A DNA stretch of 32,000 bases, taken from contig JBAZVE010000001.1 in assembly GCA_041661045.1 (NCBI GenBank), forward strand, positions 1,050,001-1,082,000. Reading direction: 5' to 3'. The position numbers and the translations under genes are program-made. Below the pieces are notes generated by a model, which ran no database searches, was not told where the DNA came from, and saw nothing but the letters and a program-made list of their open reading frames with translations. Below, piece by piece: positions 5,579 to 21,976 of this stretch. Position 1 is the first letter of the stretch. The number at the start of each line of letters is the position of its first letter. This DNA is from Candidatus Saccharimonadota bacterium (GTDB lineage Bacteria > Patescibacteriota > Gracilibacteria > UBA1369 > 2-02-FULL-48-14).

Positions 5579-5634
5579 TCTTGTTCTTTGATCTGTTTTT
5601 TGATATAATATAAAGATTTGTTCACTCACCTTTT

Positions 5635-5913: not shown

Positions 5914-5919
5914 TTCTTG

Positions 5920-5949: not shown

Positions 5950-5971
5950 CCCCTCGCTTTAGAATTTTTAA

Positions 5972-6193: not shown

Positions 6194-7003
6194 ATGACGA
6201 TCGGAAGGGTGCTTGCCCTTGCTCAAAAGGCGGGACTTCGCACAGAGATGGAGGTTTTTTTAGCCTTTTTACTCGATTGTTCTCGTTTGGATCTGATTGC
6301 ACGAAGTGAAGAAGAAATTCCGGTTGAGTCGCTCGCTCCGCTTCAAAAAGGCTGGATCGCTCTTCAGGATGGAGTGCCCGTGGCCTATTTAACACAGCAG
6401 AAAGAGTTTTATGGCCTGCCTTTTTTTGTGGATGAACGGGTTTTGATCCCGAGGCCGGAGACGGAACAGTTGGTGGATTTGGCCCTGCACTACGCCAAAA
6501 AGAGTGTTTTGGAGCTGGGTACCGGGAGTGGGGCGGTGGCCTGCAGCATCAAAAAGAACCGGCCCGAGCTTCGGGTGGTGGCCACGGACATCAGTGAGGC
6601 TGCCTTGGAGGTTGCGAACAAAAATTGTGTTCAACTTGGGGTGGAATTGGAGCTGCTTCAATCTGATCTTTTAGAAAAAGTGCCTCAGGAAGATTTTGAT
6701 GTTTTGGTGGCAAATCTCCCCTATATCGGCACGGAACTTCACGCCTTTGTGTCCGAAGAAGTGGAAAAACATGAACCTCATTTGGCTCTTTTTGGAGGCA
6801 AGGATGGCTTGGAGCTGTACAGGCGACTTTTTGAGGAGGTCTTATCTCAGGAACGGTCGTTTAAGTTTATCTTGGGTGAAGTGGGTTTCAGTCAGGGAGA
6901 AGCTATTCGAGAGCTTTGTACGGCGATGTTTCCGGAAGCCACATTCATGCTTTTGCAGGATTTGCAGGGGCTTGATCGGCATTTTGTCCTGGAAAGAATG
7001 TGA
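6194..7003 (+). CDS. prmC: Release-factor glutamine N5-methyltransferase (HemK/PrmC)
   Basis: SAM motif I VLELGTGSGAVA, a VATDIS segment, motif IV as VANLPYIG (NLPY where NPPY is usual), and the PRPETE segment. It lies directly upstream of prfA. Confidence 0.85.
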   Translation: MTIGRVLALAQKAGLRTEMEVFLAFLLDCSRLDLIARSEEEIPVESLAPLQKGWIALQDGVPVAYLTQQKEFYGLPFFVDERVLIPRPETEQLVDLALHYAKKSVLELGTGSGAVACSIKKNRPELRVVATDISEAALEVANKNCVQLGVELELLQSDLLEKVPQEDFDVLVANLPYIGTELHAFVSEEVEKHEPHLALFGGKDGLELYRRLFEEVLSQERSFKFILGEVGFSQGEAIRELCTAMFPEATFMLLQDLQGLDRHFVLERM

Positions 7004-7025
7004 TTTTTAGGTAGAATGAGCCGCG

Positions 7026-8090
7026 ATGAAAGATAAATTACAAAAACTTGAGGAAGAATACACCCAGGTGGAGCTGCGTATGGCGGATCCGGCTATTTTT
7101 TCGGATCAAGAGGCTTTTCAAAAACTTTTGGCGCGAAGGCGGGAGTTGGAAGGAGCTGTGTCTTTGTTTCGAGAACTTCAAATTCAAGAGAAAAGAATAG
7201 AGGACAGCCAGGTGCTTTTGGAGGACAAGGATGAGGAAATCCGTGAAATGGCTAAAGAAGAGCTTAAGCAAGCCAAAGAAGCGTTCGAAGAGCTCACGGA
7301 AAAACTCAAATTGGAGTTGGTGCCCAGGGATCCTAAGGATGGAAAAAACTGCATTATGGAACTGCGGGCCGGAACCGGGGGAGATGAGGCGGCTTTGTTT
7401 TGTGAAGAGATGTCACGAATGTATCTTCGCTATGTGAAAGAGAAGGGCTACCAGGTGGAGGCCATCAGCGAGAGTTTGGGAGAAAAGGGAATGAAAGAGT
7501 TTATTTTTAAGGTTATTGGTCCCGGGGCTTACGGCCGAATGAAGTATGAAAGTGGCGTGCATCGCGTGCAAAGAATCCCTGAAACCGAAGCCAAGGGGCG
7601 AGTGCATACTTCCGCTGCTTCGGTGGTGGTGCTGCCCGAAGTGGATGAAGTGGAATTGGAAATTCGAGATCAAGATTTGCGCATTGATGTGTACCGATCC
7701 GGCGGTCATGGGGGGCAAAGCGTGAACACCACCGATTCCGCCGTGCGCATCACTCACATTCCTTCGGGACTTGTGGTGGTGTGTCAGGATGAAAAATCTC
7801 AACTCAAAAACAAGATCAAGGCCATGGGCGTGCTTCGCTCTCGCTTGTATGCCCTGGAAAAGGAAAAACGAGATCGGGAGCTGGGCGAGGCTCGCGAATC
7901 TTTGGCAGCCACCGGCGAACGGGGCGACAAAATTCGCACCTACAACTTCCCCCAAGACCGCGTCACCGACCACCGCATCGGCCAAAACTTCAGCAACCTC
8001 CCCGCCATCATGGAAGGCGAAATCGACCCCATCATCGAAGCCTTGATCCTGGAAGATCAAACCAAGAGACTGGCCGCCGCTGCGGAGTGA
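7026..8090 (+). CDS. prfA: Peptide chain release factor 1
   Basis: GGQ motif ([26 protein letters not shown]), RF1-type P-x-T tripeptide ([14 protein letters not shown]) and the C-terminal [15 protein letters not shown]. Confidence 0.95.
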
Positions 8091-8094
8091 GGGG

Positions 8095-8122
8095 TTGACT
8101 TATTAATAGACTATGCTTTAAT
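8095..8122 (+). promoter_or_regulatory. Sigma70-like promoter
   Basis: TTGACT (8095-8100), 16-nt spacer, TTTAAT (8117-8122), upstream of the ORF at 8149. Confidence 0.4.
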
Positions 8123-8148
8123 AGGCTGGCTTATTTATTTTTATTCTC

Positions 8149-8421
8149 ATGCCAGGTGAGGAAAATATTGCTGGGGAGGATAGTGGTGGTGAGCATCTCT
8201 TAGAGGAAATACTTGCACAAGCTCACAGGGAGGCGGAGCATGTGGATGCAGCTTCTCAAGCCCTTCTTGAACAGGCTATGTGCAATTTCGCTTATGAAAT
8301 GAGAGGCACTGGGTGGACGCTAGAGGATCAAATGGCTTTCTTGAGGTGTCCAAAGAATAGAGAACTTGTGTGGTATTTTAGGAAAGGTAACCGTGCGAAG
8401 ATGCCTAGTTGTCACGACTGA
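8149..8421 (+). CDS. Hypothetical small acidic protein (90 aa)
   Basis: ORF preceded by a plausible promoter. No recognisable motif. Confidence 0.4.
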   Translation: MPGEENIAGEDSGGEHLLEEILAQAHREAEHVDAASQALLEQAMCNFAYEMRGTGWTLEDQMAFLRCPKNRELVWYFRKGNRAKMPSCHD

Positions 8422-8435
8422 TCTTTTAACTTAGA

Positions 8436-9212
8436 ATGGCTGCGATGTGGATTGATACGCATTGTCATCCGTTTGCGGCCTCGCTCCGTCAGGAGGAAGG
8501 TGCGGCTTTTGAGCGGGCGCGGGCGGCCGGAGTTTCGAAATTTATTGTGGTGGGGTATGACTTGGAGGCGAATCGAGATGTGTTGAGGATTATTGGTGAG
8601 GAGCCGGATGCTTGGGGAGCGGTGGGCATTCATCCGTGTGAGGCGAATCTTTTTAGTGAGGAGGTCTTGGCCTTGATCGAAACCCAAGCAGCTCACCCTA
8701 AAATTGTGGCGATTGGGGAGATGGGGCTTGATTACTACCACAAAGAGACGACTCGTGAAGAACAAGAAATAGCATTCAGAAGGCAAATTGCTTTAGCCAA
8801 AGAGCTGGACTTGCCTTGCATTGTGCATTCTCGCGACGCGGCCGAAGACACCTTGAGCATTTTGCTTGAAGAAAAAGCCACAAAAGTTGTTTTTCATTGC
8901 TTCAGTTATGGCCCGGACTTTGCTCGCAAGGTCTGGGAGGCGGGTTATTTCACCAGTTTCAGCGGAGTGGTGTCGTACCCCAATGCCAAGGAAATTCAAG
9001 AAGCGGCGCGCATTGCTCCGGCTCACTTGATTCTTACCGAAACCGATTGTCCTTGGCTCGCCCCCCAATCCATACGAGGGCAGCGCAATGAAATGGCCTA
9101 TGTGCGGGAAGTTGGGGAGAAGTTGGCGGAGTTAAGAACTATCTCAAAAGCAGAGATGCAAGCCCTCATTTTGGAGAATAGTCTTAACCTTTTTCGGTTC
9201 AATAATTATTGA
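8436..9212 (+). CDS. TatD-family metal-dependent hydrolase/DNase
   Basis: N-terminal WIDTHCHP metal-binding motif, GEMGLDYY, PCIVHSRDA, VVFHCFSYG and LILTETDCPWLAP. The start could be ATG 8436 or ATG 8445. Confidence 0.85.
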   Translation: MAAMWIDTHCHPFAASLRQEEGAAFERARAAGVSKFIVVGYDLEANRDVLRIIGEEPDAWGAVGIHPCEANLFSEEVLALIETQAAHPKIVAIGEMGLDYYHKETTREEQEIAFRRQIALAKELDLPCIVHSRDAAEDTLSILLEEKATKVVFHCFSYGPDFARKVWEAGYFTSFSGVVSYPNAKEIQEAARIAPAHLILTETDCPWLAPQSIRGQRNEMAYVREVGEKLAELRTISKAEMQALILENSLNLFRFNNY

Positions 9213-10218
9213 AGACTCTCAACCTTGCATCGTACTGGAATAAACCACTGTTTTGGAGGTGAGCGGTTGCCCTTTTTGGATCGATTGGAGCTTGAGTGGT
9301 AACTTCCCTAGTCAAACAGTGGGCCGCCCCCCCCAAAAAACGATTTTGACTGAGATCAAGCGTGTGTCGGGTGACGCCTGTTTCTGCCTCCTGTTGAACT
9401 TGCTTGCTTGTATATTTCCCGCTCGCAAATACTTCATCCCCCCATTGTACTTGATTGGGGGTGAGCGCATCTGCATCTGCCTTGGTGATGGGGTAGAGTG
9501 GTGCTGAAAGGTCTTTGGCAAGCTTTTCCATTTTTCTTCTTGATGGAGCTGTAAAAGCATCCATCCATGCAAAGAATTTAACGCCATCTTGAGTCACAAG
9601 ATGTGTGAAGACACAGTCTAGATGTAATCCGTCGACAAGATCGAAGCATTCATGTCTGATGGTTGGATCTTTTTCTGTTAGGAACTCTGTGACGACTTGT
9701 AGACCCTCTGCATCTGAACGAGTGGAGGTGCCTGAAATGTACCAAGTTTTTCCGTCCAATTTGAAAAATCGTGTATTACCTCCTTCGTGATATCCCTTTG
9801 GCATTGTTTGAGTCGGAACTCCAAGAGCATCGAAAAATACTTTGTTGAGTTCAGGCTCGTTTCTACGAGTGGGTGCACCCATATTTAAGAGGAGCATTGT
9901 GCCGTCCGGCCTTGTAAGGGAAGGATCTCGTAAAAATTCTATATCTTGAGTTAACCCATTTTCTTTAAAGACATCCTCTTTTGGATAGGGGACCACAATC
10001 AATGGCACGCCACTTCGTGCAAGTCGGGCGATCAAAGCTTGATGTTCTTGTCTTAGTCTTGTTACATCCCCCAACCATTTTTTCTCTTGAGCTTCTTGCA
10101 TATGGCCATTCCCGGGGGCTGCCTCTGGGATTCCATTTGGCCAATAGCCCACCTCTGCAGGTGGACTCTCCATGATCATGAGGTAATCACATTTCTCTCC
10201 CTCCATCAAGCTAGTCAT
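9199..10218 (-). CDS. Guanidino-group-modifying (GME) superfamily hydrolase, agmatine/peptidyl-arginine deiminase-like
   Basis: 339 aa. C-terminal catalytic-Cys motif LGGAAHCLTREV (compare GGGNIHCITQQ of agmatine deiminases), GLHLDCVF (His), an N-terminal PAEVGYWP segment, and DIEFLRDPS (compare D.W.RD.GP). The subfamily is assigned by eye only. Confidence 0.65.
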   Translation of the reverse strand: MTSLMEGEKCDYLMIMESPPAEVGYWPNGIPEAAPGNGHMQEAQEKKWLGDVTRLRQEHQALIARLARSGVPLIVVPYPKEDVFKENGLTQDIEFLRDPSLTRPDGTMLLLNMGAPTRRNEPELNKVFFDALGVPTQTMPKGYHEGGNTRFFKLDGKTWYISGTSTRSDAEGLQVVTEFLTEKDPTIRHECFDLVDGLHLDCVFTHLVTQDGVKFFAWMDAFTAPSRRKMEKLAKDLSAPLYPITKADADALTPNQVQWGDEVFASGKYTSKQVQQEAETGVTRHTLDLSQNRFLGGAAHCLTREVTTQAPIDPKRATAHLQNSGLFQYDARLRVFNNY

Positions 10219-10239
10219 AAAAAGAATTTCTTAAGGATA

Positions 10240-11046
10240 TTATCTTGGGAATTCCTTTCCTCGTGCAGTGAGGCTCACTGTCGCAGGATCAAAGGCAAGT
10301 CCTCTTGCTCGGATTTCCTCTAGCACTGGCTGGACATCAAAGCTCCTACAGCTGAAGAGATCAAAAAAGTATCTTCCTTCTGCGTCAACATGCAGGGCAA
10401 TGTGTGATTCTGCAATGAGAAGCACGCCATCTGTCCATCCTCCTTCTTTTGTAACATAAGGGGTCGTTACCGGGGTCATCCCTATTGATGGAGGCAACCT
10501 TTTCATGAAGTCATAGAGCCAATCGAGATCTCTTTGATCTTCAGGCAAGACCCCTTCCATCATAAGGTGAGGGCCAAAGGAGTGATCGATTTCAGCGGTA
10601 TCGGTGGGTTTGGTTTTCCCGCGTTCAAAAAGATCGTGTTTCTTCGTACGGAATTGCTCAATCATTTCACCCTTTAAAAGGTTTTTTAGATCTGGTCTTT
10701 TCCCACTTCGTCTTGTGGAAGTTCCGTTAGTAGGTCTGGCTCCTCTTGCGAGGGCAAGATCTGCAAATACGCAAGCCCTTGTTGGGTCACTGAAGCTATG
10801 GACGGTCATATGGCCTCCGGGGAAGACCCCCATTCCGGAAATTCCTTTATCTTCAGGTTTCTTTCCATCGAAGTAGGGGAAAAGGTGAGGAGGGTTGACC
10901 AGTGCTATTCCTAATTGATCGGCTATGTATTGCATAGAGCTGTGGAGATCCCTTAGATCTTCCAAATCTCTACAATTGCCTTTGTAGCCATCGTACATAA
11001 CATGATCGATTTTAAGGCGTGTTGGGTCAGGTCGTTTCGTGGACAT
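10240..11046 (-). CDS. Tandem-duplicated (pseudo-dimeric) AdoMetDC/SpeD-like pyruvoyl-dependent decarboxylase proenzyme
   Basis: The C-terminal half carries the class-1 AdoMetDC self-processing signature VLLIAE|SHIALHV...FFDLFSCRSFD (E213/S214 at 10405-10410). The N-terminal half has the same fold signature but is degenerate (GISGMGVFPGGHMTVHSF...CVFADLA, with no Ser). A basic linker joins the halves. Confidence 0.7.
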   Translation of the reverse strand: MSTKRPDPTRLKIDHVMYDGYKGNCRDLEDLRDLHSSMQYIADQLGIALVNPPHLFPYFDGKKPEDKGISGMGVFPGGHMTVHSFSDPTRACVFADLALARGARPTNGTSTRRSGKRPDLKNLLKGEMIEQFRTKKHDLFERGKTKPTDTAEIDHSFGPHLMMEGVLPEDQRDLDWLYDFMKRLPPSIGMTPVTTPYVTKEGGWTDGVLLIAESHIALHVDAEGRYFFDLFSCRSFDVQPVLEEIRARGLAFDPATVSLTARGKEFPR

Positions 11047-11327
11047 TTTAAAAAGTGTTAAAGATTACAAAGATTACATTTTTTTAGGAATTTCCATGCT
11101 TAGCATGTGGAATCCTTTTTTAAGTACAGTTTGGACACTTTGAAAAATTCTTCCGTAGACATATTTTTGTTCGTTGGTCATATCTATTACTTTTGTGAGT
11201 CTTTTTCCTTGTGAATAATAAGCGTTGATAGGAAACAGTGCCATCATAGGTTCACGCTTTATTAAAGTCAAATTTTGGCTTTAATAGGCCGCTTCTTCGC
11301 GTCTTTACAGAATTAATTTTTAGTGTT

Positions 11328-11936
11328 ATGCTCGTGACTACAACTCGAAGATTTATGGGACCTTCTGACACTCCTTCATCGGCTACCTGCTTGTATGATG
11401 CTCCAGTGAGTCTTTCCCATCCTTTGCTGCGAGAGATTATTCAGCAACTTTCTGCCGAACAAGTAAGCGCTTTATTTGGGGCGTCGTCTCTTACTCAAGA
11501 CGCAATGATGGAGCACCTTTTATCTCAGGCTGAAAAATTTGGATGTGATGTCCATGAACTTAGGGTTTATCTTTCAGACGCTGGATCTGCTCAATTTGTT
11601 ACTTTCCGTGGAGAAAATGCTGAAGACCGAATACTTGATCTTTGTAGGCCAGAATTGATGAAAGAGGATCCATTAACTTTTTCTGTGCGAACTTCTTTGG
11701 CGCGTGCCTTGGAGGAAGGTTTTGAAGAACTTCATGATTTGGATGCTTTGAGAGGAGAAGGTATCCCCCCTCATTTGGGCTATATCCTGGATCAGATCAC
11801 GATTGCTGGTGGGCAGCTTACAATAGGAGGCAGAATCCGCTCTATGCTTGGGGGCAGTCCTATTCCTCTTCGCTTCACATTTCCCTTGAGAGATCACTTG
11901 GAGGTGAACGGTGGGGATGAACTCACTTTTCAATAA
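11328..11936 (+). CDS. Hypothetical protein (202 aa)
   Basis: ATG-initiated ORF divergent from the decarboxylase operon. No motif recognised. Confidence 0.5.
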   Translation: MLVTTTRRFMGPSDTPSSATCLYDAPVSLSHPLLREIIQQLSAEQVSALFGASSLTQDAMMEHLLSQAEKFGCDVHELRVYLSDAGSAQFVTFRGENAEDRILDLCRPELMKEDPLTFSVRTSLARALEEGFEELHDLDALRGEGIPPHLGYILDQITIAGGQLTIGGRIRSMLGGSPIPLRFTFPLRDHLEVNGGDELTFQ

Positions 11937-11949
11937 GTTAAATTTTTAC

Positions 11950-11977
11950 TTGCAATCCAATTTTTTTGAGGTAGAGT
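11950..11977 (+). promoter_or_regulatory. Candidate promoter of the T-box leader
   Basis: TTGCAA (11950-11955), 16-nt spacer, TAGAGT (11972-11977). Stem I starts about 15 nt downstream. Confidence 0.4.
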
Positions 11978-11989
11978 TCCTTTGAAATG

Positions 11990-12265
11990 TCTGAAGAAAA
12001 GTAAGTGGACCCACGATGTTTGTAGAGAGCTGGGGGTGGTGAAAGCCCGGCAACTCGTCCCACTGAACGCCCTTCAAATTAAGACAGCAGCCGAAGAAAG
12101 CCCTTGTGGCAAGTAGGTGTCGCCGGCAGAGTCCGTTATCAAGCTCACGATATATTTCCTAGCTAACTAGAGATGTATCGAATAAGACTTTCCAGGGTAA
12201 CCTGGAAGTGAACAGGGTGGTACCGCGGATCATAAGATTCGCCCCTGACCTTAAGGGGTGTTTTT
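11990..12265 (+). promoter_or_regulatory. T-box riboswitch leader, putative Arg (CGC) specifier, controlling argG-argH
   Basis: The T-box sequence AGGGTGGTACCGCGG lies at about 12213-12228. The F-box CCGTTA is present in agtCCGTTAtc (about 12132-12140), as is an AGAGAG element (12023-12028). The distal hairpin is GCTGGG-GGTGGTGAAAG-CCCGGC. Stem III is TTCCAGG-GTAA-CCTGGAA (12190-12207). The specifier-loop geometry is UGAAG/AAAAGUA/AGUGGAC...GUCCCACU/GAA-CGC-C/CUUCA. A terminator hairpin follows at the 3' end. Confidence 0.8.
12241..12265 (+). terminator. Intrinsic terminator of the T-box leader
   Basis: GCCCCT-gacctta-AGGGGT followed by GTTTTT. Its 5' arm can instead pair with the AGGG of the T-box sequence (antiterminator). 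It ends 26 nt before the argG ATG. Confidence 0.75.
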
Positions 12266-12290
12266 CTATCATTTAAAACTTTTTCTTCTT

Positions 12291-13559
12291 ATGGACTCTA
12301 ATACTACTTATCAAAAAGCCGCTTCTTACGAGGCTCAGATAGGGCAGGTTAAGAAATGTGTACTGCTTTACTCGGGAGGTCTGGACACTTCTGTAATGTT
12401 GAAGTGGATTAAGGATACCTATGGGTGTGAAATTATTGCTTTGACTCTTGATCTTGGTCAACAGGCCGATGATCTTGAAGAGGTGAAGGCCAAGGCGCTT
12501 CGGTTGGGGGCTTCTAAGGCTTATGTTTTAGATTGTAAGGAAGAGTTTGCCAATGACTATATCTCTAAGGCCATCAAGGCAAATGCTTCTTATCAGGGGG
12601 ATTACCATTTAAGTACACCCATCGGTAGACCTTTGATTGCTAAAAAGGCTGTCGAAATTGCACTTCAAGAGGGGGCTGATGCCATTGCTCATGGATGTAC
12701 AGGCAAAGGGAATGATCAGGTGCGTATTGAGGCAACGGTTCTTTGTTATGCTCCAAAAATGAAAATTATTGCTCCTGTTCGCGAATGGGGAATGGGCCGA
12801 GAGGAAGAAATTGAATATGCAAAAAAACATGGGATAGAAACTCCTCAAACTAAGAAAAATCTTCCTTATTCCTGGGATGACAATATGTGGGGCCTTACCG
12901 GAGAGGGTGGGGAAATTGAAAACCCAAGTCTCAAACCTAAGTTGGAGCTTATTTTGCAGGTTTGTAAGACTCAGGAAGAGGCCTCAGACCAAAAGGAAGA
13001 ATTTGAGATTGAGTTTGCTGCCGGCGTCCCGGTTGCAATCAATGGAGAGAAGAAAGCCTTGCAAGATATTATTAAGGATTGTAATGCCATGGGGGCAAAA
13101 CATGCCATTGGATATGTGATTCTTATTGAAGATCGTTTGGTTGGCTTGAAAGTTCGTGGAGTTTATGAAAACCCCGGAGCGCATATTATTGTTACCACTC
13201 ATAAGAATTTAGAGAAAATTGTTTCTACTCAAACTGAAAATGAACTCAAGGAATTCATGGACAGCAAGTGGGCTTATATGTGCTACAGTGCAAAGTGGAT
13301 GGACCCTACAATGAAGCATGTAAACAGTTTCATCGCCAGTATGAATGAAAAAGTTACGGGTAAGGTGAGATTTTCCCTTTATAAGGGTAAAATAGATGTA
13401 CTCACGGTAAATTCCCCTTATTCTCTTTTCAACGAAAATTTGGCAACTTTCAATAAAAATGTGGCTTTCAACCAAAATGCGTCTGCTGGTTTCATAGAAA
13501 TTTACTCCTTGGCGATGAAAACTCACTACCAAGTAGAACAAGAAAATCACTCCAAATAA
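12291..13559 (+). CDS. argG: Argininosuccinate synthase
   Basis: LLYSGGLDTS ATP-PPase motif, IAHGCTGKGNDQVR, PYSWDDNMWG and IEDRLVGLKVRGVYENPG. The track start GTG 12258 lies inside the terminator hairpin, so ATG 12291 (MDSNTTYQ) is preferred. Confidence 0.9.
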   Translation: MDSNTTYQKAASYEAQIGQVKKCVLLYSGGLDTSVMLKWIKDTYGCEIIALTLDLGQQADDLEEVKAKALRLGASKAYVLDCKEEFANDYISKAIKANASYQGDYHLSTPIGRPLIAKKAVEIALQEGADAIAHGCTGKGNDQVRIEATVLCYAPKMKIIAPVREWGMGREEEIEYAKKHGIETPQTKKNLPYSWDDNMWGLTGEGGEIENPSLKPKLELILQVCKTQEEASDQKEEFEIEFAAGVPVAINGEKKALQDIIKDCNAMGAKHAIGYVILIEDRLVGLKVRGVYENPGAHIIVTTHKNLEKIVSTQTENELKEFMDSKWAYMCYSAKWMDPTMKHVNSFIASMNEKVTGKVRFSLYKGKIDVLTVNSPYSLFNENLATFNKNVAFNQNASAGFIEIYSLAMKTHYQVEQENHSK

Positions 13560-13561
13560 CT

Positions 13562-14866
13562 ATGTCTAAACTTTGGCAAAAGGAAGGTGCTGTTAAACTC
13601 AACAGTGTGGTGGAACGCTATACGGTTGGGGAGGACTATCTCCTAGATAGGGTTCTTTTCCCCTACGACATTATTGGGACGCTTGCTCATGCTAAGGCTT
13701 TGGCCCAAGCGAAAGTTATTTCTTTGGAAGAGCTTTCTAGCATTCAAAAAACTCTCAAAGCTTTAGCGGAATTGGTGAAGAGCGGTGATGTGACGATTTC
13801 TATTGAAGATGAGGATTGCCATACCGTTATGGAAAACTACCTCGTCTCAGAGCTGGGAGATCTTGGTAAAAAGATTCATACGGGTCGTAGTCGAAATGAT
13901 CAATCGTTGGTAGCGCTTAGGTTGTTCATGAAAGAGAACCTCCTGGTTACACAGCAACTTGTTAAAAAACTTGCTGAGGAGATACTGGTGTATGCCAAAA
14001 AGTACCGTTCTGTGGCTATGCCTGGTTACACTCACACACAACAAGCTATGCTCACGAGTGTCGGCCACCACATGCTTTCGTTTGTAGAGAGTTTGTTGGA
14101 TGACTTTTCTTTCCTGGATAGTGTGCTTAAACATATCGATAAAAATCCACTGGGATCGGCAGCTGGTTTTGGCAGTAATGTTCCTCTAGATCGTGAGTTG
14201 ACTACAAAGGAACTTGGATTCGCGTCGACTCAAATTAACTCTATTTATTGTCAGAGTAGCCGGGGTAAATTTGAGAGCGTTTACTTGGAGGGAGTTAATC
14301 AGATCATGATGACTCTTGGACGATTGGCCGCTGATTTTCTAATGTTTACTACCAGGGAATTTTCTTTCTTTGAAGTCGCTGCGGATCTCACGACGGGATC
14401 TTCCATTATGCCCCAGAAAAAAAATCTGGATTTATTGGAAGTTTTACGCGCTAATCTTTCCGTTTGTTTCGCAAACAAAGAAATGGTGCAAGGGATTTCA
14501 AAGGGCTTGCCTTCCGGTTATAACAGAGATTATCAACTTATCAAAAAAGCCGTTATTCAAAGCACTTCCATTGTTCAGGATAGTTTGCAGCTGATTTCTG
14601 TTTTTATTGGCGGTATCAAGCCTAAATCTGATGAGATTTTAACTAAAACACAGGATGACATTTATTCCGCAGATTTAGCTACTCAGCTGAGCTTCGAAAA
14701 AGGAATACCCTTTCGTGATGCCTACCAGGAGGTTATGACGAAGTTTAAAGATGGCTTTCGAGCCCTTGGTGAAGATCCCCAAAAAGTGTTACAAGGTCGT
14801 GCTACTCTGGGTGCACCTGGTAATGATGCTTTGAGTTACTATGAAAGTTTACTGATTTCACTATGA
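13562..14866 (+). CDS. argH: Argininosuccinate lyase
   Basis: Fumarate-lyase family signature GSSIMPQKKNLD, plus HTGRSRNDQ and MPGYTHTQQA. It starts 2 nt after the argG stop. Confidence 0.9.
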   Translation: MSKLWQKEGAVKLNSVVERYTVGEDYLLDRVLFPYDIIGTLAHAKALAQAKVISLEELSSIQKTLKALAELVKSGDVTISIEDEDCHTVMENYLVSELGDLGKKIHTGRSRNDQSLVALRLFMKENLLVTQQLVKKLAEEILVYAKKYRSVAMPGYTHTQQAMLTSVGHHMLSFVESLLDDFSFLDSVLKHIDKNPLGSAAGFGSNVPLDRELTTKELGFASTQINSIYCQSSRGKFESVYLEGVNQIMMTLGRLAADFLMFTTREFSFFEVAADLTTGSSIMPQKKNLDLLEVLRANLSVCFANKEMVQGISKGLPSGYNRDYQLIKKAVIQSTSIVQDSLQLISVFIGGIKPKSDEILTKTQDDIYSADLATQLSFEKGIPFRDAYQEVMTKFKDGFRALGEDPQKVLQGRATLGAPGNDALSYYESLLISL

Positions 14867-15030
14867 CTACTTCCGACTTTTCGCAAGATTCTGAGCCTAT
14901 TTAAAAAAAGACCGTTTTGTGTCAGTGCTTATGATAGAGTCGGTGAAGTTGAGGTAGATCGGAGGATGAAGATGGTGTTATACTCTGCTATTGCAGGTTA
15001 ACGAGTCTCTATTTCATTGCTATCCCTTCT

Positions 15031-15987
15031 ATGTTTCATCTCCGCCAAGTCATTCTTACGAGTTCTCAGCGGACGATTTTGAGTGATCTGTTGGAGTCTT
15101 TTAGTTCCGAAGATGTTTACGCACAGAGCTATTCTATTTCTGGATATCTCCATCAGCGCACGGATTTTTTTCGCCTGGCGCCCCCTTTTTTAAAAGATAT
15201 ATTCTTATCCTATCTCGATGCGGGATCTTTTGCTGATGCACTTGTTATCAAGAACTGTCCACTGGATTTGGATTTGCCATCCACTCCTCTTGATGAATCT
15301 CCATCTTTTTTTAAAAGTACTTTCTTGTCGGAGCATCTACTGCTCATGGCCAGTACTTTGCTGGGTACGCCTTTTGCTATTGATGCCGAAAACGCCGGGT
15401 TTTTGATCCATAACATTTATCCTGTCAAAAAACTTTCACAAAACCAATCTTCCAAATCTTCGGGCGTTATGCTGACTCTTCATACGGAATTGTCTTGTAT
15501 GACGGATCCTCCCGATTTCCTTGTTCTTTTGGGTTTACGCACGGCCGACTATAAGGTGAATACGCCTATTTTGAAATTGGACGAGCTTCTCGACTTCTTA
15601 ACGGAGTCAGAAATTGCTCTTTTGTATGAGCCTCTTTTTATTACAGAAATAGATGAATCACTGCGTAAAGATTTAAACAGTACGGTTTTTACTGAACCTT
15701 TCCGAATTCTTTCCCTCGTGGATGGGATTCGTGTTTGGCGCTATGATGTAGAGTATACCCGAGGTATTACTCCCGAGAGTCAGGCCGTTGTTCAGAAAAT
15801 AGTAGCCGTTCACGGGCCACTTTTCCATAATGTTGTTATTGATCCGGGCGATTTGCTTGTTATTAATAATACAAGAGTTGCTCATGGGCGAGAACCGTTT
15901 GAAGCAAAATACGACGGTTCGGATCGTTGGCTTCAGAGAGTGAATATTCATTTGAGCGATACTCAAAAAACTTTTTATAAAGTATAA
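15031..15987 (+). CDS. Fe(II)/2-oxoglutarate-dependent oxygenase, clavaminate-synthase-like amino-acid hydroxylase family (VioC/AsnO-like)
   Basis: H-x-E facial-triad motif and following segment: LTLHTELSCMTDPPDFLVLLGLR (compare LHTE.AF...RPDF..LLCLR). Distal His/Arg motif: LVINNTRVAHGREPF. Tail: DRWLQRVNI. Confidence 0.8.
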   Translation: MFHLRQVILTSSQRTILSDLLESFSSEDVYAQSYSISGYLHQRTDFFRLAPPFLKDIFLSYLDAGSFADALVIKNCPLDLDLPSTPLDESPSFFKSTFLSEHLLLMASTLLGTPFAIDAENAGFLIHNIYPVKKLSQNQSSKSSGVMLTLHTELSCMTDPPDFLVLLGLRTADYKVNTPILKLDELLDFLTESEIALLYEPLFITEIDESLRKDLNSTVFTEPFRILSLVDGIRVWRYDVEYTRGITPESQAVVQKIVAVHGPLFHNVVIDPGDLLVINNTRVAHGREPFEAKYDGSDRWLQRVNIHLSDTQKTFYKV

Positions 15988-15994
15988 GATTTCT

Positions 15995-17659
15995 ATGAAT
16001 AAAGCTGGGCAACGTTATATCCTCGGTTTCTCAGATTCCTTGCATGATAGATCGGTGTGTATTTTCAGAGATGCTGTTCCCCTCATTGCTATTGAGGAAG
16101 AGAGACTTTCTCGTGTCAAACATGGACTTGCACTCTATGGAGAGTCCAGGAAAAATCCTTCGATCTTTTCCCAAATGGAGTTGGAAAAATCCTCTTCTGA
16201 AGAAAACGAAGCTCGGTTGCAACCCTCCATTGATTACTGCTTAAACGCTTTGGGCATCACTATGGATGACATTGATGTGATTGCGGGGAATTCACTGCAT
16301 TTGGCTTTTCCGTTTCATGGTAACTCCATTCATATTAATCATCATTTGGCGCATGCCTCTGCGGCTTTTTATGCTTCTGGATTTCGAGAGGCTGCTATTT
16401 TTGTGGCGGATGGTTACGGCGATCTTTGCAACAGTCAGTGCTACGAGACCTTGATGTTGGCCAAAGGTAGAGATCAATCTATTAAGAAGCTTAAGTTGGT
16501 CACGGGCCATGTGACGAGCTATTACGATATGGAAAATTCTTTAGGAGTTTTCTATCGGATAGGAACTCTTTTGTCCGGTTTTGGAATGTTTGATGAGGGG
16601 AAAATGATGGGTTTGGCGGCGTATGGCGAACCAAAATATTATGATTTTATAAAGGATTTTCTTATTTTTCAGCCGGATTGTGTTTCGATTAAAAATGGTG
16701 AGCTTTTCAATGCTTTTTCCGATGCTGTGCAAGATAGAAGTGCTTTTGAACTGAGAGCAAATATAGCCGCTTCGTTTCAACGTGTTTTTGAGGAAATTGT
16801 TTTCTTCTACATCCATCATCTTTATGAAATAGCAGAGAGTGAGAATTTGTGTATCTCTGGTGGGATTGGACTCAACTGCGTGATGAATGCCAAGGCTTTA
16901 ATGCAATCGAAATTTAAGAATGTTTTTGTTTTCCCAGGCCCTGGAGACAATGGAATTTCTTTTGGAGCAGCCTATTTTGTTGCTCATCAGCTTTTGGGCC
17001 TTCCGCGTACTGAGCCGTTGGACATTGCTTATTTTGGCAAGGCCTATACTCAGAGTCAGGAGTTGGAAGTCTTAGAGAAGTATAGCGACCAAGTAGAGTT
17101 TGAAGAGCTGAATGAAGATGAGCTCACGACTCTTGCTGCTGATTTATTGGTGAAAGACAATGTGATCATGTGGTTTCAGGAGGGATGTGAATTTGGCCCA
17201 AGAGCTTTGGGCCACCGAAGCTGTTTAGGGAACCCTATGCGTGTAGAGACGAAAGACTATATCAATGCGAAAGTGAAGTTCAGAGAGACATTCAGGCCTT
17301 TGGCGCCGATTGTTTTGGAAGAATACATGCGAGATTTTTTTGATATCAGCTGTCCATCGCCATTTATGCTTTTTTCTCCTCGTGTTAGAGAGAAGACTAA
17401 GGAAATGGCTCCTGGCATTGTTCATGTGGATGGCACTTCAAGGTTGCAGACGATCAATCGCAAACAAAATGCAAAACTGTATTCCTTGATTCATAAATTT
17501 TTTGATCAAACTCAGGTGCCTATTATCCTCAATACTTCTTTCAATGGTAAGGATGAGCCAATTGTGGAGACTCCCGAAGATGCTCTCAAGAGCTTTTTGA
17601 GTTCCCCTGTGGAACACTTATTTATTGATAATTATCACATAACCAAAAACATATCTTGA
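15995..17659 (+). CDS. NodU/CmcH-family (TobZ-like, ATP-dependent) carbamoyltransferase
   Basis: 554 aa. ILGFSDSLHDRSVCIF...AIEEERLSRVKH, HHLAHASAAFYASGF, ISGGIGLNCVMN, FGPRALGHRSCLGNP, FRPLAP, VHVDGTSRLQT and ILNTSFNGKDEPIV. It starts 7 nt after the oxygenase stop. Confidence 0.85.
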   Translation: MNKAGQRYILGFSDSLHDRSVCIFRDAVPLIAIEEERLSRVKHGLALYGESRKNPSIFSQMELEKSSSEENEARLQPSIDYCLNALGITMDDIDVIAGNSLHLAFPFHGNSIHINHHLAHASAAFYASGFREAAIFVADGYGDLCNSQCYETLMLAKGRDQSIKKLKLVTGHVTSYYDMENSLGVFYRIGTLLSGFGMFDEGKMMGLAAYGEPKYYDFIKDFLIFQPDCVSIKNGELFNAFSDAVQDRSAFELRANIAASFQRVFEEIVFFYIHHLYEIAESENLCISGGIGLNCVMNAKALMQSKFKNVFVFPGPGDNGISFGAAYFVAHQLLGLPRTEPLDIAYFGKAYTQSQELEVLEKYSDQVEFEELNEDELTTLAADLLVKDNVIMWFQEGCEFGPRALGHRSCLGNPMRVETKDYINAKVKFRETFRPLAPIVLEEYMRDFFDISCPSPFMLFSPRVREKTKEMAPGIVHVDGTSRLQTINRKQNAKLYSLIHKFFDQTQVPIILNTSFNGKDEPIVETPEDALKSFLSSPVEHLFIDNYHITKNIS

Positions 17660-17743
17660 AGCCATTGCTCTCCATGTTTTCCCTTCTCGCACCTATCAAT
17701 ATAGGTGTGTTTTTGTATGATGTTATTCAAAACTCTTTGAACC

Positions 17744-18736
17744 ATGCTTCCTGATGAAATTTCTTTCCTTGTGGATTTCTTGAATGTTCCGTCTGTAACA
17801 GGAAGCGAGCATGCGTCCGCCATGTTTTTGTTCCAGTGGATGAAACGAAACTTACCCCATGATGTTTTGGAATTGCAGAATGTTATAAACGGGAGATCAA
17901 ATATTGTATTGAGAAGAGGAAATCCTTCACTCACACTAACATCACATCTTGATACTGTGCCTGGTGGTCCTCATGTCAGAATGGCCTCCGGCAGAGTATA
18001 TGGTCGTGGATCATGTGATGCAAAGGGCCAAATTGTTGCTCAGCTTTCCGCTTTGAAGCGAATGATCAAGAGTGGTCTTAGTGAATATGCCTGTTTTTAT
18101 GTGATTGGAGAGGAAGTGGATAGTATTGGGGCGAGACATCTTATTAACCATTCGAGTATTGGTTCCGAATATCTTCTTAATGGAGAGCCAACGGGGAATA
18201 AATTCATACATGCATCAGCTGGAATTTTGGATTTTAGCCTCTCGACGACGGCAAAAAAGCAGCATACTTCTATTCCAGGCTTTCGTTCGGCTATTCATGA
18301 CTTAGTCCTCGACATACATCTATTATTGAACGGGAAATATGGTAGTTCGATAAATGTTGGTTACATTCAAGGGGGTGAAGCGCTGAATGTTAGTACGGGA
18401 ACTGCTACTGCACATATATCTGTTCGTATACAGGAGGACCCCGCTCTGATTTTGCGGAAGATAAAAAAGATATGCTTGAACGCGTCTGTAAAGATGCTGG
18501 ATCCTGCCCTGAAGCCATTTGTCTTTTATGTTCCACCTCAGTATAGGGAGAATGCTATTCGTGTACTTTTTTCTTCGGATAGTCCCTTGTACGCTAAGAA
18601 ATTTAAAAAGATTATGATGTTTGGTCCAGGGGATATTCTTATGGCTCATGCGGATAATGAATATATATCATTATCGCAGATGGATGAGGGTTTGGATATT
18701 ATTTCACAACTCTTACGGAAGTATGATGCCAATTGA
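17744..18736 (+). CDS. M20-family metallo-deacylase/peptidase (ArgE/DapE-like)
   Basis: PSVTGSEH, LTSHLDTVPGG (H.D metal ligand), GRGSCDAKGQ and VIGEEVDSIGA. At 330 aa it is shorter than typical ArgE/DapE. Confidence 0.75.
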   Translation: MLPDEISFLVDFLNVPSVTGSEHASAMFLFQWMKRNLPHDVLELQNVINGRSNIVLRRGNPSLTLTSHLDTVPGGPHVRMASGRVYGRGSCDAKGQIVAQLSALKRMIKSGLSEYACFYVIGEEVDSIGARHLINHSSIGSEYLLNGEPTGNKFIHASAGILDFSLSTTAKKQHTSIPGFRSAIHDLVLDIHLLLNGKYGSSINVGYIQGGEALNVSTGTATAHISVRIQEDPALILRKIKKICLNASVKMLDPALKPFVFYVPPQYRENAIRVLFSSDSPLYAKKFKKIMMFGPGDILMAHADNEYISLSQMDEGLDIISQLLRKYDAN

Positions 18737-19163
18737 AATTCAAATGACTGATGGAAAATCCGACTTCATGTCTGCTATTTTTGATTTGCGTCATGAGGTT
18801 TTTGTAGTTGAGCAGCATGTTCCGATTGAGCTTGAAATTGATGAATTTGATCAAGAGGCCATGCATTTTTTTGCATTACAGGGCGATCAGATAGTTGGCA
18901 CACTTCGTATTCTTGCTGAGGATGATCATGTCAAAATTGGGCGTGTAGCTGTGAAAAAGGATCATAGAAAACTTGGAATTGGACGAAAAATAATGGAGAC
19001 CGCCATGAATTATATTCAGAATAGTGGCTATACAACTATAGTTCTGGGTGCTCAACTGGAGGTCGTGCCATTCTATCAAAAGCTTGGTTTTGTTGAGGAG
19101 GGTGAGATTTTTGATGATGCGGGTATTGATCACATTATGATGGTGAAAAGAGTGAATCATTGA
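18723..19163 (+). CDS. GNAT-family N-acetyltransferase (ElaA/YjcF-like)
   Basis: RHEVFVVEQHVP...DEFD, VGTLRI, the acetyl-CoA motif IGRVAVKKDHRKLGIGRKIM, and FYQKLGFVEEGEIFDDAGIDHIMM. ATG 18723 overlaps the M20 stop by 14 nt. ATG 18744 is an alternative start. The track start at 18621 is unlikely. Confidence 0.75.
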   Translation: MMPIEIQMTDGKSDFMSAIFDLRHEVFVVEQHVPIELEIDEFDQEAMHFFALQGDQIVGTLRILAEDDHVKIGRVAVKKDHRKLGIGRKIMETAMNYIQNSGYTTIVLGAQLEVVPFYQKLGFVEEGEIFDDAGIDHIMMVKRVNH

Positions 19164-19209
19164 TAAGTTTATTCAGTATCTTGAATCTTTGTTTGTAATC
19201 CCTAAAGAG

Positions 19210-19821
19210 ATGAATGCAAGAATAAATAATTTAACCGTTGATCAGCCAAAGGTTAGGGCTGGTGATGTTCGCGTAAGTCCACAAATGTTCGAGCAGTTAC
19301 GGGAAGTCGAAGCTCGGTCTGCCGAGATTACTGGTATACTCCTTAAAGTGATGAATTCTGCTGGTGTTGAAGAGGCGATTTTTGATGGTGGCTTTCTGGC
19401 GTGTAAAGATGACGGGGACTCTACTTCTTCGACTTCCGAGAACCTTACAGTCAGAAAAGAAGAGATTGCTGGACGGTTAGTTGAAAGGATAGTAAGGGAT
19501 TTTACCGATATTCCTGCTGATCAACTCGTATCACGGCACAGTGATGATAGGAATCCACTTGTTGTTTTTTCCGCTCAGGATTTGGAGGTTATTGGATTTA
19601 GTCTCTATGACAAGTACCTAGAAGGATGGATGTCTTATGAGCAGGTGAGAAGAGGCCGTGAACATATGGGATTCATGGATGATGTATTCGCTAAGGTTGT
19701 TTCAAGTTTTGAACAAACCAGTCGTGGATCTGGATCTCATTACTCATTATATTTATTGCCAAGTAAGCGTAGTTTATCGGTCTTTTTGCGTCATACTGGG
19801 CAGGGTTTTCCAGTACCTTAA
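19210..19821 (+). CDS. Hypothetical protein (about 203 aa)
   Basis: The ORF track starts at TTG 19189. The first ATG is at 19210 (MNARINN...). No motif recognised. It is co-directional with the cassette. Confidence 0.45.
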   Translation: MNARINNLTVDQPKVRAGDVRVSPQMFEQLREVEARSAEITGILLKVMNSAGVEEAIFDGGFLACKDDGDSTSSTSENLTVRKEEIAGRLVERIVRDFTDIPADQLVSRHSDDRNPLVVFSAQDLEVIGFSLYDKYLEGWMSYEQVRRGREHMGFMDDVFAKVVSSFEQTSRGSGSHYSLYLLPSKRSLSVFLRHTGQGFPVP

Positions 19822-19975
19822 TGTCGAAAATTTTTGACTGATTTGACGCAGACTACCGCAAAGATTGATGATGCAACCACTTTCAGGCCCATCTTGTATT
19901 GGAAGAGAGTATCTTGATTTGATGCCAGAAAGGCTGTAAGCTGACCTTCTGAAGCAATTACAGTCATTCATTATT

Positions 19976-21976
19976 ATGTCAACTGCAGAATCTCATGTTT
20001 ATAGCCTTTGTGATGAGCTGACCTCTGTTGTTGAAGGTACTCTTGGAAAGAAACTGGGGCAACCTGTTACGAGGGCGAGAGTTGAGGGAGCGGACTATGG
20101 TTTGAACCTCCATGCTTTGCGTGAGGCTACAGAAAGTATAGATGATGTTGTTGTGAGAATCAGGGACCTTATTATAGGATTGATCCCTGCTGGTATTACG
20201 ATTTCTGCTGAAAAAGGTTTTATTAATTTTCAAGTTTCGAACGAAGCGTTGGGACGGGTTGTTGCAAATATTGTTGATCAGCCTAACGGAGGAATAGAGC
20301 CTGTCGGTGATCGTACTATGTTGGAGTTTTTTAGTCCCAACACCAATAAGCCCATGCACTTGGGGCATCTTAGAAATATTGCATTGGGAGAAAGTTTGGC
20401 CCGATTGCTCCAGTTTTTCGGACACGATGTCACCAAAGTGAATCTGTTCAATGATCGTGGTGCTCATATTTGTAAATCTATGCTTGCCTACCAATTGTAT
20501 GGCGGTGAAGCCACGCCTGAGTCCACCGGCGTTAAAGGCGATCATTTTGTTGGGGATTACTATGTTCGTTACGAGAAAGATTTGCAGGCACAGCTAAAAC
20601 CCATTATTGAGCGCATCAAGAGTGAGCCTGAGATGGCAGCAGAGCTGTTGGCATCCAGCGAAGAACTCGCAAAACTTGAATCGGCAATGAAAGATCAGCC
20701 TACTGATAAAACACTCAAGCTTGCTTTTGAAAAAGCCAAGAAAAAACACGCAAACTTGGAAGAACGTGTTGTAAGTCAGGCTAAAGCTGAAGCTCCCCTC
20801 GTTCTTGAAGTGAATGAAATGCTTCAAAAATGGGAAGATGGAGATCCGGAGGTGCGGGCGCTATGGGAAAAGATGAACGGCTGGGCTATTGGAGGTATGG
20901 AACAAACGCTGGATCGTCTCGACACGCATTTTGACATTATCTATTTCGAATCACAGACTTATAAGCTTGCGATGGACATGATTCAGAAAGGTTTGGACAG
21001 TGGTACCTTTGAAAGGGATCCAAGCGGTGCTGTAGTTGCTGATTTAGAAAAACTTGGGGTGCGGGATAGAAAGGGGAATCCCTTGAGTGGTAAGAAAGTT
21101 TTGCTGCGCTCTGATGGAACGAGTGTATACATCACTCAGGATTTGGCTATGGCGGAACTCAAAGCGAAGGACTATCACCCGGATAACAGTATGTATGTAG
21201 TGGCTGATGAACAACTTCGTCACTTCGAAGTCCTTTTTGGAATTCTTAAGGCTTTGGGCTACGGCTGGGCTGATAAACTCAAACACATTCCTTATGGTAT
21301 GGTGGACCTTCCCTCGGGACGAATGAAATCTCGTGAAGGAACGGTGGTGGATGCGGACGATATCCTTGATGCGCTGCGTGACAATGTAAAAGCAGTGAGT
21401 GCTCAATCTTCGGATCTTGCAGATGCCGGAAGGGTGCCTCGACGGGAGGTGCTTGAGGATGAAGTCGCTGACAAAATTGGTATTGCAGCTATGCGCTATT
21501 ACCTTCTGTCGAGTCGCCCTGACAGTAGAATAAAATTTGATCCGGAACAATCGGTAAAGCTTGAAGGGAAGACAGGTCCTTATATTCTTTATCAATATGT
21601 CCGCAGTGGAAAGATTCTCCAAACTGCTGAAGACAATGGTGGGGGAGTTTCAACGCCTGGCGCAGCTCCGGATTTTTCTACTCTGGCTGACCCAGCTGAG
21701 CATGACCTTTTGATGACATTGGTTGAATTTACAGATTGTATGAAAACTATTCAGAGGACTCTTGATCAAACGCTTTTATCTGATTATGTGTACAAGTTGG
21801 CTAAAGCGTTTGCGGTTTTCTACGAGAAGTGTCCGATTTTTAAGCCGGCACTGGCGGGTCAAGACCCCATTGCTCCTGAACTTAAAAATACCCGACTTGC
21901 ACTTGTTCAGTATTCCCATTCCTTGTTATCGAAATCTTTGGAATTGCTTGGAATAGAGAAAGTGGAGCGAATGTAG
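19976..21976 (+). CDS. argS: Arginine--tRNA ligase
   Basis: Class I HIGH motif (PNTNKPMHLGHLRN), NDRGAHI, a KMSKS-equivalent GRMKSREGTVV, and a C-terminal anticodon-binding (DALR-type) region ending in the typical terminal RM. At 666 aa it carries a K/E/A-rich insertion between the HIGH and MKSR motifs. Confidence 0.9.
   Translation: MSTAESHVYSLCDELTSVVEGTLGKKLGQPVTRARVEGADYGLNLHALREATESIDDVVVRIRDLIIGLIPAGITISAEKGFINFQVSNEALGRVVANIVDQPNGGIEPVGDRTMLEFFSPNTNKPMHLGHLRNIALGESLARLLQFFGHDVTKVNLFNDRGAHICKSMLAYQLYGGEATPESTGVKGDHFVGDYYVRYEKDLQAQLKPIIERIKSEPEMAAELLASSEELAKLESAMKDQPTDKTLKLAFEKAKKKHANLEERVVSQAKAEAPLVLEVNEMLQKWEDGDPEVRALWEKMNGWAIGGMEQTLDRLDTHFDIIYFESQTYKLAMDMIQKGLDSGTFERDPSGAVVADLEKLGVRDRKGNPLSGKKVLLRSDGTSVYITQDLAMAELKAKDYHPDNSMYVVADEQLRHFEVLFGILKALGYGWADKLKHIPYGMVDLPSGRMKSREGTVVDADDILDALRDNVKAVSAQSSDLADAGRVPRREVLEDEVADKIGIAAMRYYLLSSRPDSRIKFDPEQSVKLEGKTGPYILYQYVRSGKILQTAEDNGGGVSTPGAAPDFSTLADPAEHDLLMTLVEFTDCMKTIQRTLDQTLLSDYVYKLAKAFAVFYEKCPIFKPALAGQDPIAPELKNTRLALVQYSHSLLSKSLELLGIEKVERM

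Follow-up and report, generated by a model that had tools for sequence, protein, structure and literature searches.

The 32,000-nucleotide stretch of contig JBAZVE010000001.1 analysed here (the window; Candidatus Saccharimonadota bacterium, assembly GCA_041661045.1) encodes ArgG and ArgH and, downstream of them, a TauD/clavaminate-synthase-like oxygenase (the hydroxylase), a NodU-type carbamoyltransferase (CT), an M20 metallohydrolase, a GNAT N-acetyltransferase and a second arginyl-tRNA synthetase (ArgRS2). The most economical reading of this arrangement is that two separate units lie side by side, an argG-argH salvage operon and an ArgRS-linked tailoring cassette. The cassette is recurrent, linked to ArgRS and apparently undescribed; our literature searches returned no description of this gene combination. 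An initial annotation of the window had joined the two units, with CT and M20 feeding a ureido compound to ArgG and ArgH in the absence of ornithine carbamoyltransferase (OTC). What stands of that proposal is a carbamoyltransferase/deacylase block for specialised amino-acid tailoring tied to arginine, whereas its role in feeding ArgG and ArgH does not; judged from sequence, an OTC-independent route through CT and M20 is not supported.

A cassette that travels with ArgRS

Membership of the cassette clade was set by CT identity (at least 50%; the relatives range from 50-75%) and not by gene neighbours, which gave 12 loci including the window; L059, which ends at CT, was left out, and L024 and L046 are the same DNA. 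An ArgRS gene adjoins CT in nine of these loci (the window, L021, L022, L024/L046, L025, L026, L052, L053 and L054), whereas argG/argH adjoin it in the window only (1 of 12). Among 73 control loci from metagenomes, whose CTs are at most 47% identical, not one holds an ArgRS, a cassette-type M20 or GNAT, or ArgG/ArgH. This distribution does not support the claim that CT and M20 make a ureido compound for ArgG and ArgH. Nor does it favour an OTC-independent supply of citrulline, which had been offered alongside: ArgG is missing from three of the five cassette genomes searched (G200, G201 and G202) and lies on another contig in G231, and argGH occurs in relatives that lack the cassette.

ArgRS2 is only 26% identical to the housekeeping ArgRS of the same genome (C1:354388-356043, 433 bits). 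At least two full ArgRS genes are present in all four cassette genomes searched (G000, G200, G201 and G202), while a second ArgRS match was found in none of 21 other genomes of the same order. ArgRS2 thus shows what is expected of a cluster-borne aminoacyl-tRNA synthetase, namely an extra copy beside the housekeeping one and a specific linkage to biosynthetic genes across genomes. The cassette ArgRSs belong to at least five lineages that are no more than 31% identical to one another, which argues for repeated recruitment. The most constant part of the cassette is the hydroxylase-CT pair. The two genes are spaced by 0-20 nt or overlap in all loci that have both (the hydroxylase gene of the window ends 7 nt 5' of the CT gene), and this closeness would fit a hydroxyl group that is installed first and then receives the carbamoyl group.

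The closest cassette is found in L024/L046, from a Peribacteria metagenome-assembled genome (MAG; G231), whose proteins are 52-75% identical to their window counterparts. Here the gene order is circularly permuted (window 15031-21976 versus L024/L046 113-7847), with the tailoring block on opposite sides of the orphan-ArgRS pair: it precedes ArgRS2 in the window and follows ArgRS in L024. On the metagenome contig L134, an ArgRS 72% identical to ArgRS2 directly follows a complete arg operon with no cassette, and 3' of it lie a DALR-only protein, a SpeD-like decarboxylase (73%) and two genes of guanidino-hydrolase fold (window homologue 54%). On the basis of these comparisons, the tailoring block may have been inserted on either side of ArgRS2 within a Peribacteria arginine island. 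The arg operon of L134 contains an OTCace-fold transcarbamylase (not scored against NCBIfam) where G231 has an N-acetylornithine carbamoyltransferase, together with an AstE/AspA-family deacylase, and a YbaK-type tRNA-editing-domain gene sits between its argH and ArgRS.

DNA resembling integrative and conjugative elements around L022 and the GC content of the window, which is 41% across about 11-21 kb against 48-50% in the flanks, indicate that the cassette is horizontally mobile. A search of genome contigs with the window CT protein returned one close relative only. CTs that are 43-47% identical (L023, L050 and L051, in Vibrio mediterranei, Parafrankia EAN1pec and Actinokineospora baliensis) were set aside, as they belong to a different conserved cluster. 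That sister cluster combines PhyH, an unknown gene, a methyltransferase, CT, an aldo-keto reductase, an aminotransferase and a P450.

ArgG and ArgH in a genome without OTC

The initial annotation was right that argG and argH are present and regulated: both proteins score above their equivalog cut-offs, and a T-box leader with a terminator lies upstream. A genome-wide profile search found argG as a single copy. ArgG matches the solved ArgG structures 6xnq and 1j1z (E 1e-105 and 9e-102) and is 59% identical to ArgG of same-order relatives without the cassette. ArgH is 52-54% identical over its full length to the ArgG-adjacent ArgH of three same-order relatives and 43% identical to that of a fourth.

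Of the canonical arginine pathway, the genome of the window (1.32 Mb, three contigs, 98.8% complete) encodes ArgG and ArgH and neither OTC nor N-acetylornithine carbamoyltransferase. Its sole gene of ATCase/OTCase fold is pyrB, beside pyrC (TIGR00670 348 bits; TIGR00658 156 bits against a cut-off of 281). No match to argB or argJ was obtained genome-wide, in a search that did not include argD and arcC; the only match to argC reaches 108 bits against a cut-off of 234, and carB is present. The lack of argF/argI-type, argB, argC and argJ genes that had been noted for the window thus extends to the entire genome. A canonical argF with a full arg pathway elsewhere had been named as the finding that would count against the ureido-to-guanidino route; as neither a canonical OTC nor argB, argC or argJ turned up, the proposal was not overturned by the test it had set for itself.

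The surroundings of argG in related genomes lead to a simpler explanation. The argG-argH pair (about 53-59% identity) occurs in several same-order genomes with no cassette genes nearby, and a strong ArgG match is found in roughly 50 of 200 genomes sampled from the same class. Only 2 of the 41 genomes sampled from the order have an OTC that clears its cut-off, and in G006, G050, G118 and G169 ArgG is present while the ATCase/OTCase-fold match is only at pyrB level. Since argGH persists in relatives that have neither OTC nor the cassette, this appears to be the usual state, and ArgGH without OTC in these organisms is most simply read as citrulline salvage. The T-box, argG and argH would then form a citrulline-to-arginine salvage unit that is turned on by uncharged tRNA-Arg(GCG), in an organism that itself would produce neither ornithine nor citrulline. 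A DDAH/arginine-dihydrolase-like gene further downstream in the window (NF045659 205 bits, below its cut-off) could release citrulline from arginine derivatives and hence be a source for ArgG.

In ArgG, the positions that we take to correspond to the citrulline and aspartate ligands of the human enzyme are conserved except for one Ser-to-Thr exchange. Two motifs had been singled out as deviating. However, the position altered in KVRG also varies in solved enzymes (K-I-R-G in 6xnq), and the change in VRIE falls after the ligand Arg, which itself is unchanged. The citrulline-contacting residues of ArgG therefore look canonical.

A probable arginine T-box upstream of argG

The leader of argG was not recovered by an Rfam scan at the gathering threshold but was recovered at an E-value threshold: RF00230 matches with 77.8 bits and E 2.7e-17 over 451 nt, with 219/219 model positions matched, against a gathering score of 93. 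It has the hallmarks of the class, that is, the T-box sequence AGGGTGGTACCGCG at 12214-12227, a specifier after the GAA motif, and a terminator that overlaps the antiterminator. The specifier is CGC, an Arg codon (GAA-CGC at 12065-12070, codon at 12068-12070), and the genome encodes the matching tRNA-Arg(GCG). The base 3' of the specifier codon is C, where a purine is usual. In G231, a second T-box reads CGA at this position of the model (L049, Table 1) and precedes an operon of argG, N-acetylornithine carbamoyltransferase, an unknown gene, argC, argD and argB. No T-box was seen at the argG loci of four relatives. Arg-specifier T-boxes over arginine genes in genomes of the candidate phyla radiation (CPR) are notable on their own.

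Cassette enzymes and a proposed pathway

The best solved relatives of the hydroxylase are the L-lysine 3-hydroxylase 6f2a, the L-arginine hydroxylases 4m23/4ne0 (OrfP) and VioC (E 1e-25 to 1e-17). Its iron triad H151-x-E153...H285 is present, and its scores remain below the equivalog cut-offs of VioC (108 bits; cut-off 419), GntD (138; 345) and clavaminate synthase (106; 450). A comparison of the pockets across cassette hydroxylases left D239 as the only conserved acidic residue, from which Arg and Lys could not be told apart as substrate. In CT, the Kae1-like PF02543 and the YrdC-like PF16861 domains both exceed their cut-offs, in agreement with the original assignment of the nearby carbamoyl-transferring enzyme to the NodU/CmcH type. 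The NodU equivalog itself is far from reached (NF041651, 148.7 bits against a cut-off of 1000), the matches to TsaD and HypF are weak, and the solved relatives, 7xb6, NovN, GdmN and TobZ, are all O-carbamoyltransferases. The His-rich metal motif is invariant in an alignment of the CT clade.

M20 is 37-58% identical to the cassette M20 proteins of other loci. Its best NCBIfam matches are LysK and N-acetyl-lysine/ornithine deacetylases, with all equivalog and subfamily models below their cut-offs, and its matches in the PDB are LysK 5xoy, DapE 7uoi (the second best), 4q7a (N-acetyl-ornithine/lysine), 2f7v (acetylcitrulline) and ArgE 7rsf. The last three bear out its placement in the family of acetylornithine and acetylcitrulline deacetylases. 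M20 is probably an N-alpha-deacylase of a basic amino acid. The GNAT, whose start overlaps the end of the M20 gene, is conserved across the cassettes according to an alignment and matches ordinary acetyl-CoA enzymes in size and motifs; in L052, GNAT forms one 765-amino-acid protein with an ArgRS that has N-terminal, catalytic and DALR domains. For the orphan open reading frame immediately 5' of ArgRS2, Atlas gave a low-confidence model and no usable neighbours, and a 52% identical homologue lies immediately 5' of ArgRS in L024/L046. The hairpin that separates the CT and M20 genes is a possible terminator or attenuator.

ArgRS2 has intact HLGH and RMKSREG motifs and keeps the positions common to all aligned ArgRSs; it presumably also retains the canonical arginine-binding positions. 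It is probably an active synthetase. A K/E/A-rich insertion of ~55 amino acids in the catalytic domain (residues about 205-265, window 20570-20750) is shared with the L024 homologue and not found in the other ArgRSs aligned. Outside its small clade, ArgRS2 is nearest to Bacteroidota-type ArgRSs (37-44%).

We propose, tentatively and at somewhat less than even probability, that the cassette makes a hydroxylated and carbamoylated basic amino acid that acts on ArgRS, with GNAT and the spare ArgRS giving immunity. The Fe(II)/2-oxoglutarate enzyme would hydroxylate a basic amino acid, most probably arginine, in its free or N-alpha-acetylated form. CT, translationally coupled to this enzyme, would then convert carbamoyl phosphate and ATP to carbamoyl-AMP and carbamoylate the new hydroxyl group. 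GNAT would add and M20 remove an acetyl group at N-alpha, which would shield either the compound while it is being made or the producer itself. The product would be an arginine look-alike that the ordinary ArgRS mis-activates or by which it is blocked, and the producer would survive by means of the divergent ArgRS2 and the acetyltransferase. The substrate, the choice between O- and N-carbamoylation, the target and the immunity roles are what we infer from enzyme families and gene linkage. Two further ideas were considered and dropped: a pyrrolysine-like dedicated tRNA, as the tRNA genes in the vicinity are just the ordinary ones for Lys, Cys, Leu, Gln and Glu, and a ribosomal peptide precursor, as no conserved small open reading frame was found in the cassettes.

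Comparison with known systems

The closest precedent for such immunity is found in the tiarins, in which an ArgRS and a warhead-acetylating GNAT, both encoded in the gene cluster, each confer immunity, and each cluster-borne aminoacyl-tRNA synthetase had a housekeeping duplicate (bioRxiv 10.64898/2025.12.02.691738). Like the tiarin (trifolitoxin-like) clusters, the cassette places an extra ArgRS by biosynthetic genes with a housekeeping copy elsewhere, includes a small GNAT and has spread horizontally. Unlike those clusters, which make ribosomal peptides with YcaO/TfxB-type enzymes, its enzymes are suited to free amino-acid tailoring; neither a precursor peptide nor a YcaO- or TfxB-type domain was found in any open reading frame at 11-22 kb of the window.

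The polyoxin pathway includes a NodU-like enzyme, PolO, that O-carbamoylates a hydroxy amino acid in free form, and a GNAT, PolN, that runs an acetylation step; PolL was described without detectable homology and hence is not established as a TauD-family enzyme (PMC4029187). In its proposed chemistry, the cassette would resemble this carbamoylpolyoxamic acid branch (PolO, PolN and PolL) by combining NodU-type O-carbamoylation, N-acetylation by a GNAT and hydroxylation. The polyoxin route, however, starts from glutamate, uses ArgB-like and reductase steps that are absent here, and has no aminoacyl-tRNA synthetase. With VioC, OrfP, KDO1 and GntD the hydroxylase shares the fold, the iron triad and the acidic D239 in the substrate-binding region, but the identity is about 25-30%, and the partner is a CT in place of a pyridoxal phosphate-dependent cyclase or a nonribosomal peptide synthetase. 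Finally, the N-acetylcitrulline route of Xanthomonas and Bacteroidetes, which proceeds via AOTCase and acetylcitrulline deacetylase, is like the cassette in that it protects with an N-acetyl group, transfers a carbamoyl group and employs a deacetylase from the M20 family to which the cassette enzyme belongs. It differs in that the cassette contains no enzyme of transcarbamylase fold, that CT is ATP-dependent with a Kae1/YrdC fold, and that the cassette also occurs in genomes without ArgG.

Evidence against the proposed pathway and alternative explanations

Several observations weigh against an ArgRS-directed antimetabolite. Neither an exporter nor a regulator was identified for the cassette. 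Ordinary arginine synthesis, through ArgA and ArgE, follows the same logic as a GNAT paired with an M20 enzyme. The stretch from argH to the hydroxylase gene shows no terminator, so hydroxylase and CT are perhaps co-transcribed with argGH under the T-box; a shortage of arginine may thus switch them on, which would suit arginine supply no less than the making of a toxin. The arrangement in L134 suggests that ArgRS2 may belong to a Peribacteria arginine regulon and not to immunity. ArgRS was not seen in L055, in L060 and in one contig without DNA (3 of the 12 loci). From one cassette to another, the hydroxylases share no more than 25-27% identity, and in L025 a radical SAM enzyme replaces the hydroxylase, so that the chemistry may vary between cassettes. 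Moreover, the loci sampled are few and come for the most part from MAGs: G200 is labelled Nevskiaceae though it comprises ~1.1 Mb, and its label or binning is perhaps wrong, and the Saccharimonadales MAG G202 carries three full ArgRS genes.

Could the two units nevertheless cooperate as first suggested? GNAT, CT and M20 would then turn imported ornithine or a hydroxylated analogue via N-acetyl intermediates into citrulline or a ureido analogue, from which ArgG and ArgH would make arginine or hydroxyarginine, much as in the Xanthomonas N-acetylcitrulline pathway with a NodU-type enzyme replacing the transcarbamylase. Such a route would suit a genome that has carB and is without OTC, argB, argC and argJ, and an M20 enzyme that matches acetylcitrulline and acetylornithine deacetylases; the T-box may also drive hydroxylase and CT, as no terminator after argH is seen; related Peribacteria have a T-box-controlled arg operon of N-acetylornithine transcarbamylase type, and relative to L134 the cassette of the window occupies the place of the missing arg genes. 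We nonetheless regard it as rather unlikely, because argG/argH are absent beside the cassette in 11 of 12 loci and ArgG is missing from three of five genomes, relatives hold argGH with neither OTC nor cassette, the ArgG pocket looks canonical, all solved relatives of CT act on oxygen, and the hydroxylase, although tightly coupled to CT, would have no role. Another explanation turns the cassette from a producer into a protective island, by which the cell survives an arginine antimetabolite or ArgRS inhibitor from neighbours or host: GNAT would acetylate the compound, M20 cleave it, hydroxylase and CT modify it, and ArgRS2 be insensitive. This we consider unlikely, although a GNAT and a resistant synthetase are a demonstrated immunity pair in the tiarins, GNAT and ArgRS are fused in L052, tRNA-editing-domain genes lie near L021 and L134, and CPR cells rely on imported amino acids while no exporter is present. 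An ATP-consuming CT coupled to a hydroxylase is typical of biosynthesis rather than detoxification, and it is precisely this pair that is most constant. PADLOC gave no defence-system match among the cassette proteins.

The remaining explanations assign ArgRS2 either a more direct part or none. As a paralogue with a biosynthetic or coding role, it would supply Arg-tRNA for GNAT, hydroxylase and CT, or charge a modified arginine onto tRNA-Arg. The GNAT-ArgRS fusion in L052 and the extra catalytic-domain-only ArgRS in L053 are compatible with this, as is the fact that CT shares the Kae1/TsaD and YrdC folds of tRNA-modifying enzymes; small GNAT toxins, moreover, acetylate aminoacyl-tRNAs. With no dedicated tRNA in or near any cassette, arginine-binding positions in ArgRS2 that are presumably canonical, and a GNAT of ordinary acetyl-CoA enzyme size and motifs, such a role is very improbable in our estimate. 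Its specific form, in which the spare ArgRS with GNAT and CT acts on tRNA-bound arginine or charges hydroxylated, carbamoylated arginine onto tRNA-Arg, is hardly to be expected; if true, a non-standard arginine would be made via tRNA or used ribosomally in ultra-small bacteria. Alternatively, the cassette might have entered a variable region by chance. Its metabolite, for instance an osmolyte or a carbamoylated hydroxylysine, would then have no relation to arginine, and the spare ArgRS would be an unrelated duplicate. In line with this, a lysine hydroxylase is the best match of the hydroxylase among solved proteins, and three cassettes lack an adjoining ArgRS. Yet chance hardly accounts for the independent recruitment of at least five ArgRS lineages, for one fusion and for a control set in which 0 of 73 loci have an ArgRS, which makes such an insertion quite improbable.

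Locus layout

The features of the window and the gene content of the other loci are compiled in Table 1. The flanks of the window contain the housekeeping genes gyrB, prmC, prfA, radA, lgt, alr, clpP and 16S rRNA. Among sequencing runs, the sequence was listed in DNA runs of groundwater metagenomes, one of them probably its source, and in no RNA run. In L053, ABC permease and substrate-binding genes lie between two ArgRS genes, the catalytic-domain-only paralogue has 517 amino acids, and neither M20 nor GNAT is present.

Table 1. Features of the window, gene content of the other cassette loci and related loci named in the text
Locus	Feature or gene content	Position	Strand	Evidence or context
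Window	Guanidino-modifying-fold hydrolase	9199-10218	-	Pfam
Window	Fused SpeD-like pyruvoyl decarboxylase	10240-11046	-	Pfam
Window	T-box leader and terminator	11985..12265	+	RF00230 match at 11985-12249; hairpin 12240-12260, T-run to 12265
Window	ArgG	12291-13559	+	NF001770 505 bits (cut-off 334), TIGR00032 445 bits
Window	ArgH	13562-14866	+	TIGR00838 303 bits (cut-off 279.5)
Window	TauD/clavaminate-synthase-like Fe(II)/2-oxoglutarate oxygenase (hydroxylase)	15031-15987	+	PF02668 42.7 bits (cut-off 27)
Window	NodU/CmcH/TobZ-type carbamoyltransferase (CT)	15995-17659	+	PF16861 206.6 bits, PF02543 125.4 bits; both above cut-off
Window	Hairpin of 9 pairs, then T-run, between CT and M20 genes	17688..17714	+	z -2.95; 1/200 shuffles folds as well
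Window	M20 metallohydrolase, ArgE/DapE/LysK group	17744-18736	+	Catalytic domain PF01546 75.5 bits, dimerisation domain PF07687 26.8 bits
Window	GNAT N-acetyltransferase, ~145 amino acids	18726-19163	+	PF13673, PF00583, PF13508
Window	Orphan open reading frame, 210 amino acids	19189-19821	+	No Pfam/NCBIfam/PADLOC match
Window	ArgRS2, second arginyl-tRNA synthetase, 666 amino acids	19976-21976	+	TIGR00456 361 bits (cut-off 262)
Window	DDAH/arginine-dihydrolase-like gene	24132-24941		
L021	Hydroxylase, CT, M20, ArgRS, GNAT			G200, 1.1 Mb MAG; carAB adjoining
L022	ArgRS, radical SAM, hydroxylase, CT, M20, GNAT			6 Mb genome; among relaxase, coupling-protein and recombinase genes
L024/L046	Orphan, ArgRS, hydroxylase, CT, methyltransferase, M20, GNAT			Peribacteria MAG G231
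L025	M20, GNAT, radical SAM, ArgRS, CT			
L026	Hydroxylase, CT, M20, ArgRS			G202, Saccharimonadales
L052	Hydroxylase, CT, M20, GNAT-ArgRS fusion	6172-8469 (fusion)		
L053	Hydroxylase, CT, catalytic-domain-only ArgRS paralogue, ABC transporter parts, full ArgRS	9959-15396		
L054	Hydroxylase, CT, M20, ArgRS, GNAT			
L049	T-box leader with CGA specifier	6082-6372	-	G231 (Peribacteria)
L134	Complete arg operon, ArgRS	1-15720		No cassette

Implications

The presence of argGH without OTC is normal in these organisms, which corrects the inference of a hidden citrulline route. The cassette beside it consists of only five genes and is mobile across phyla. If it makes an ArgRS-directed antimetabolite, it would be, in the literature searched, the first pathway to a small-molecule, non-peptide natural product with a link to a resistant ArgRS. 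CPR bacteria live on other cells and were believed to have almost no specialised-metabolite chemistry; the cassette, if the proposal is true, would represent one of the few specialised-metabolite pathways in this group.

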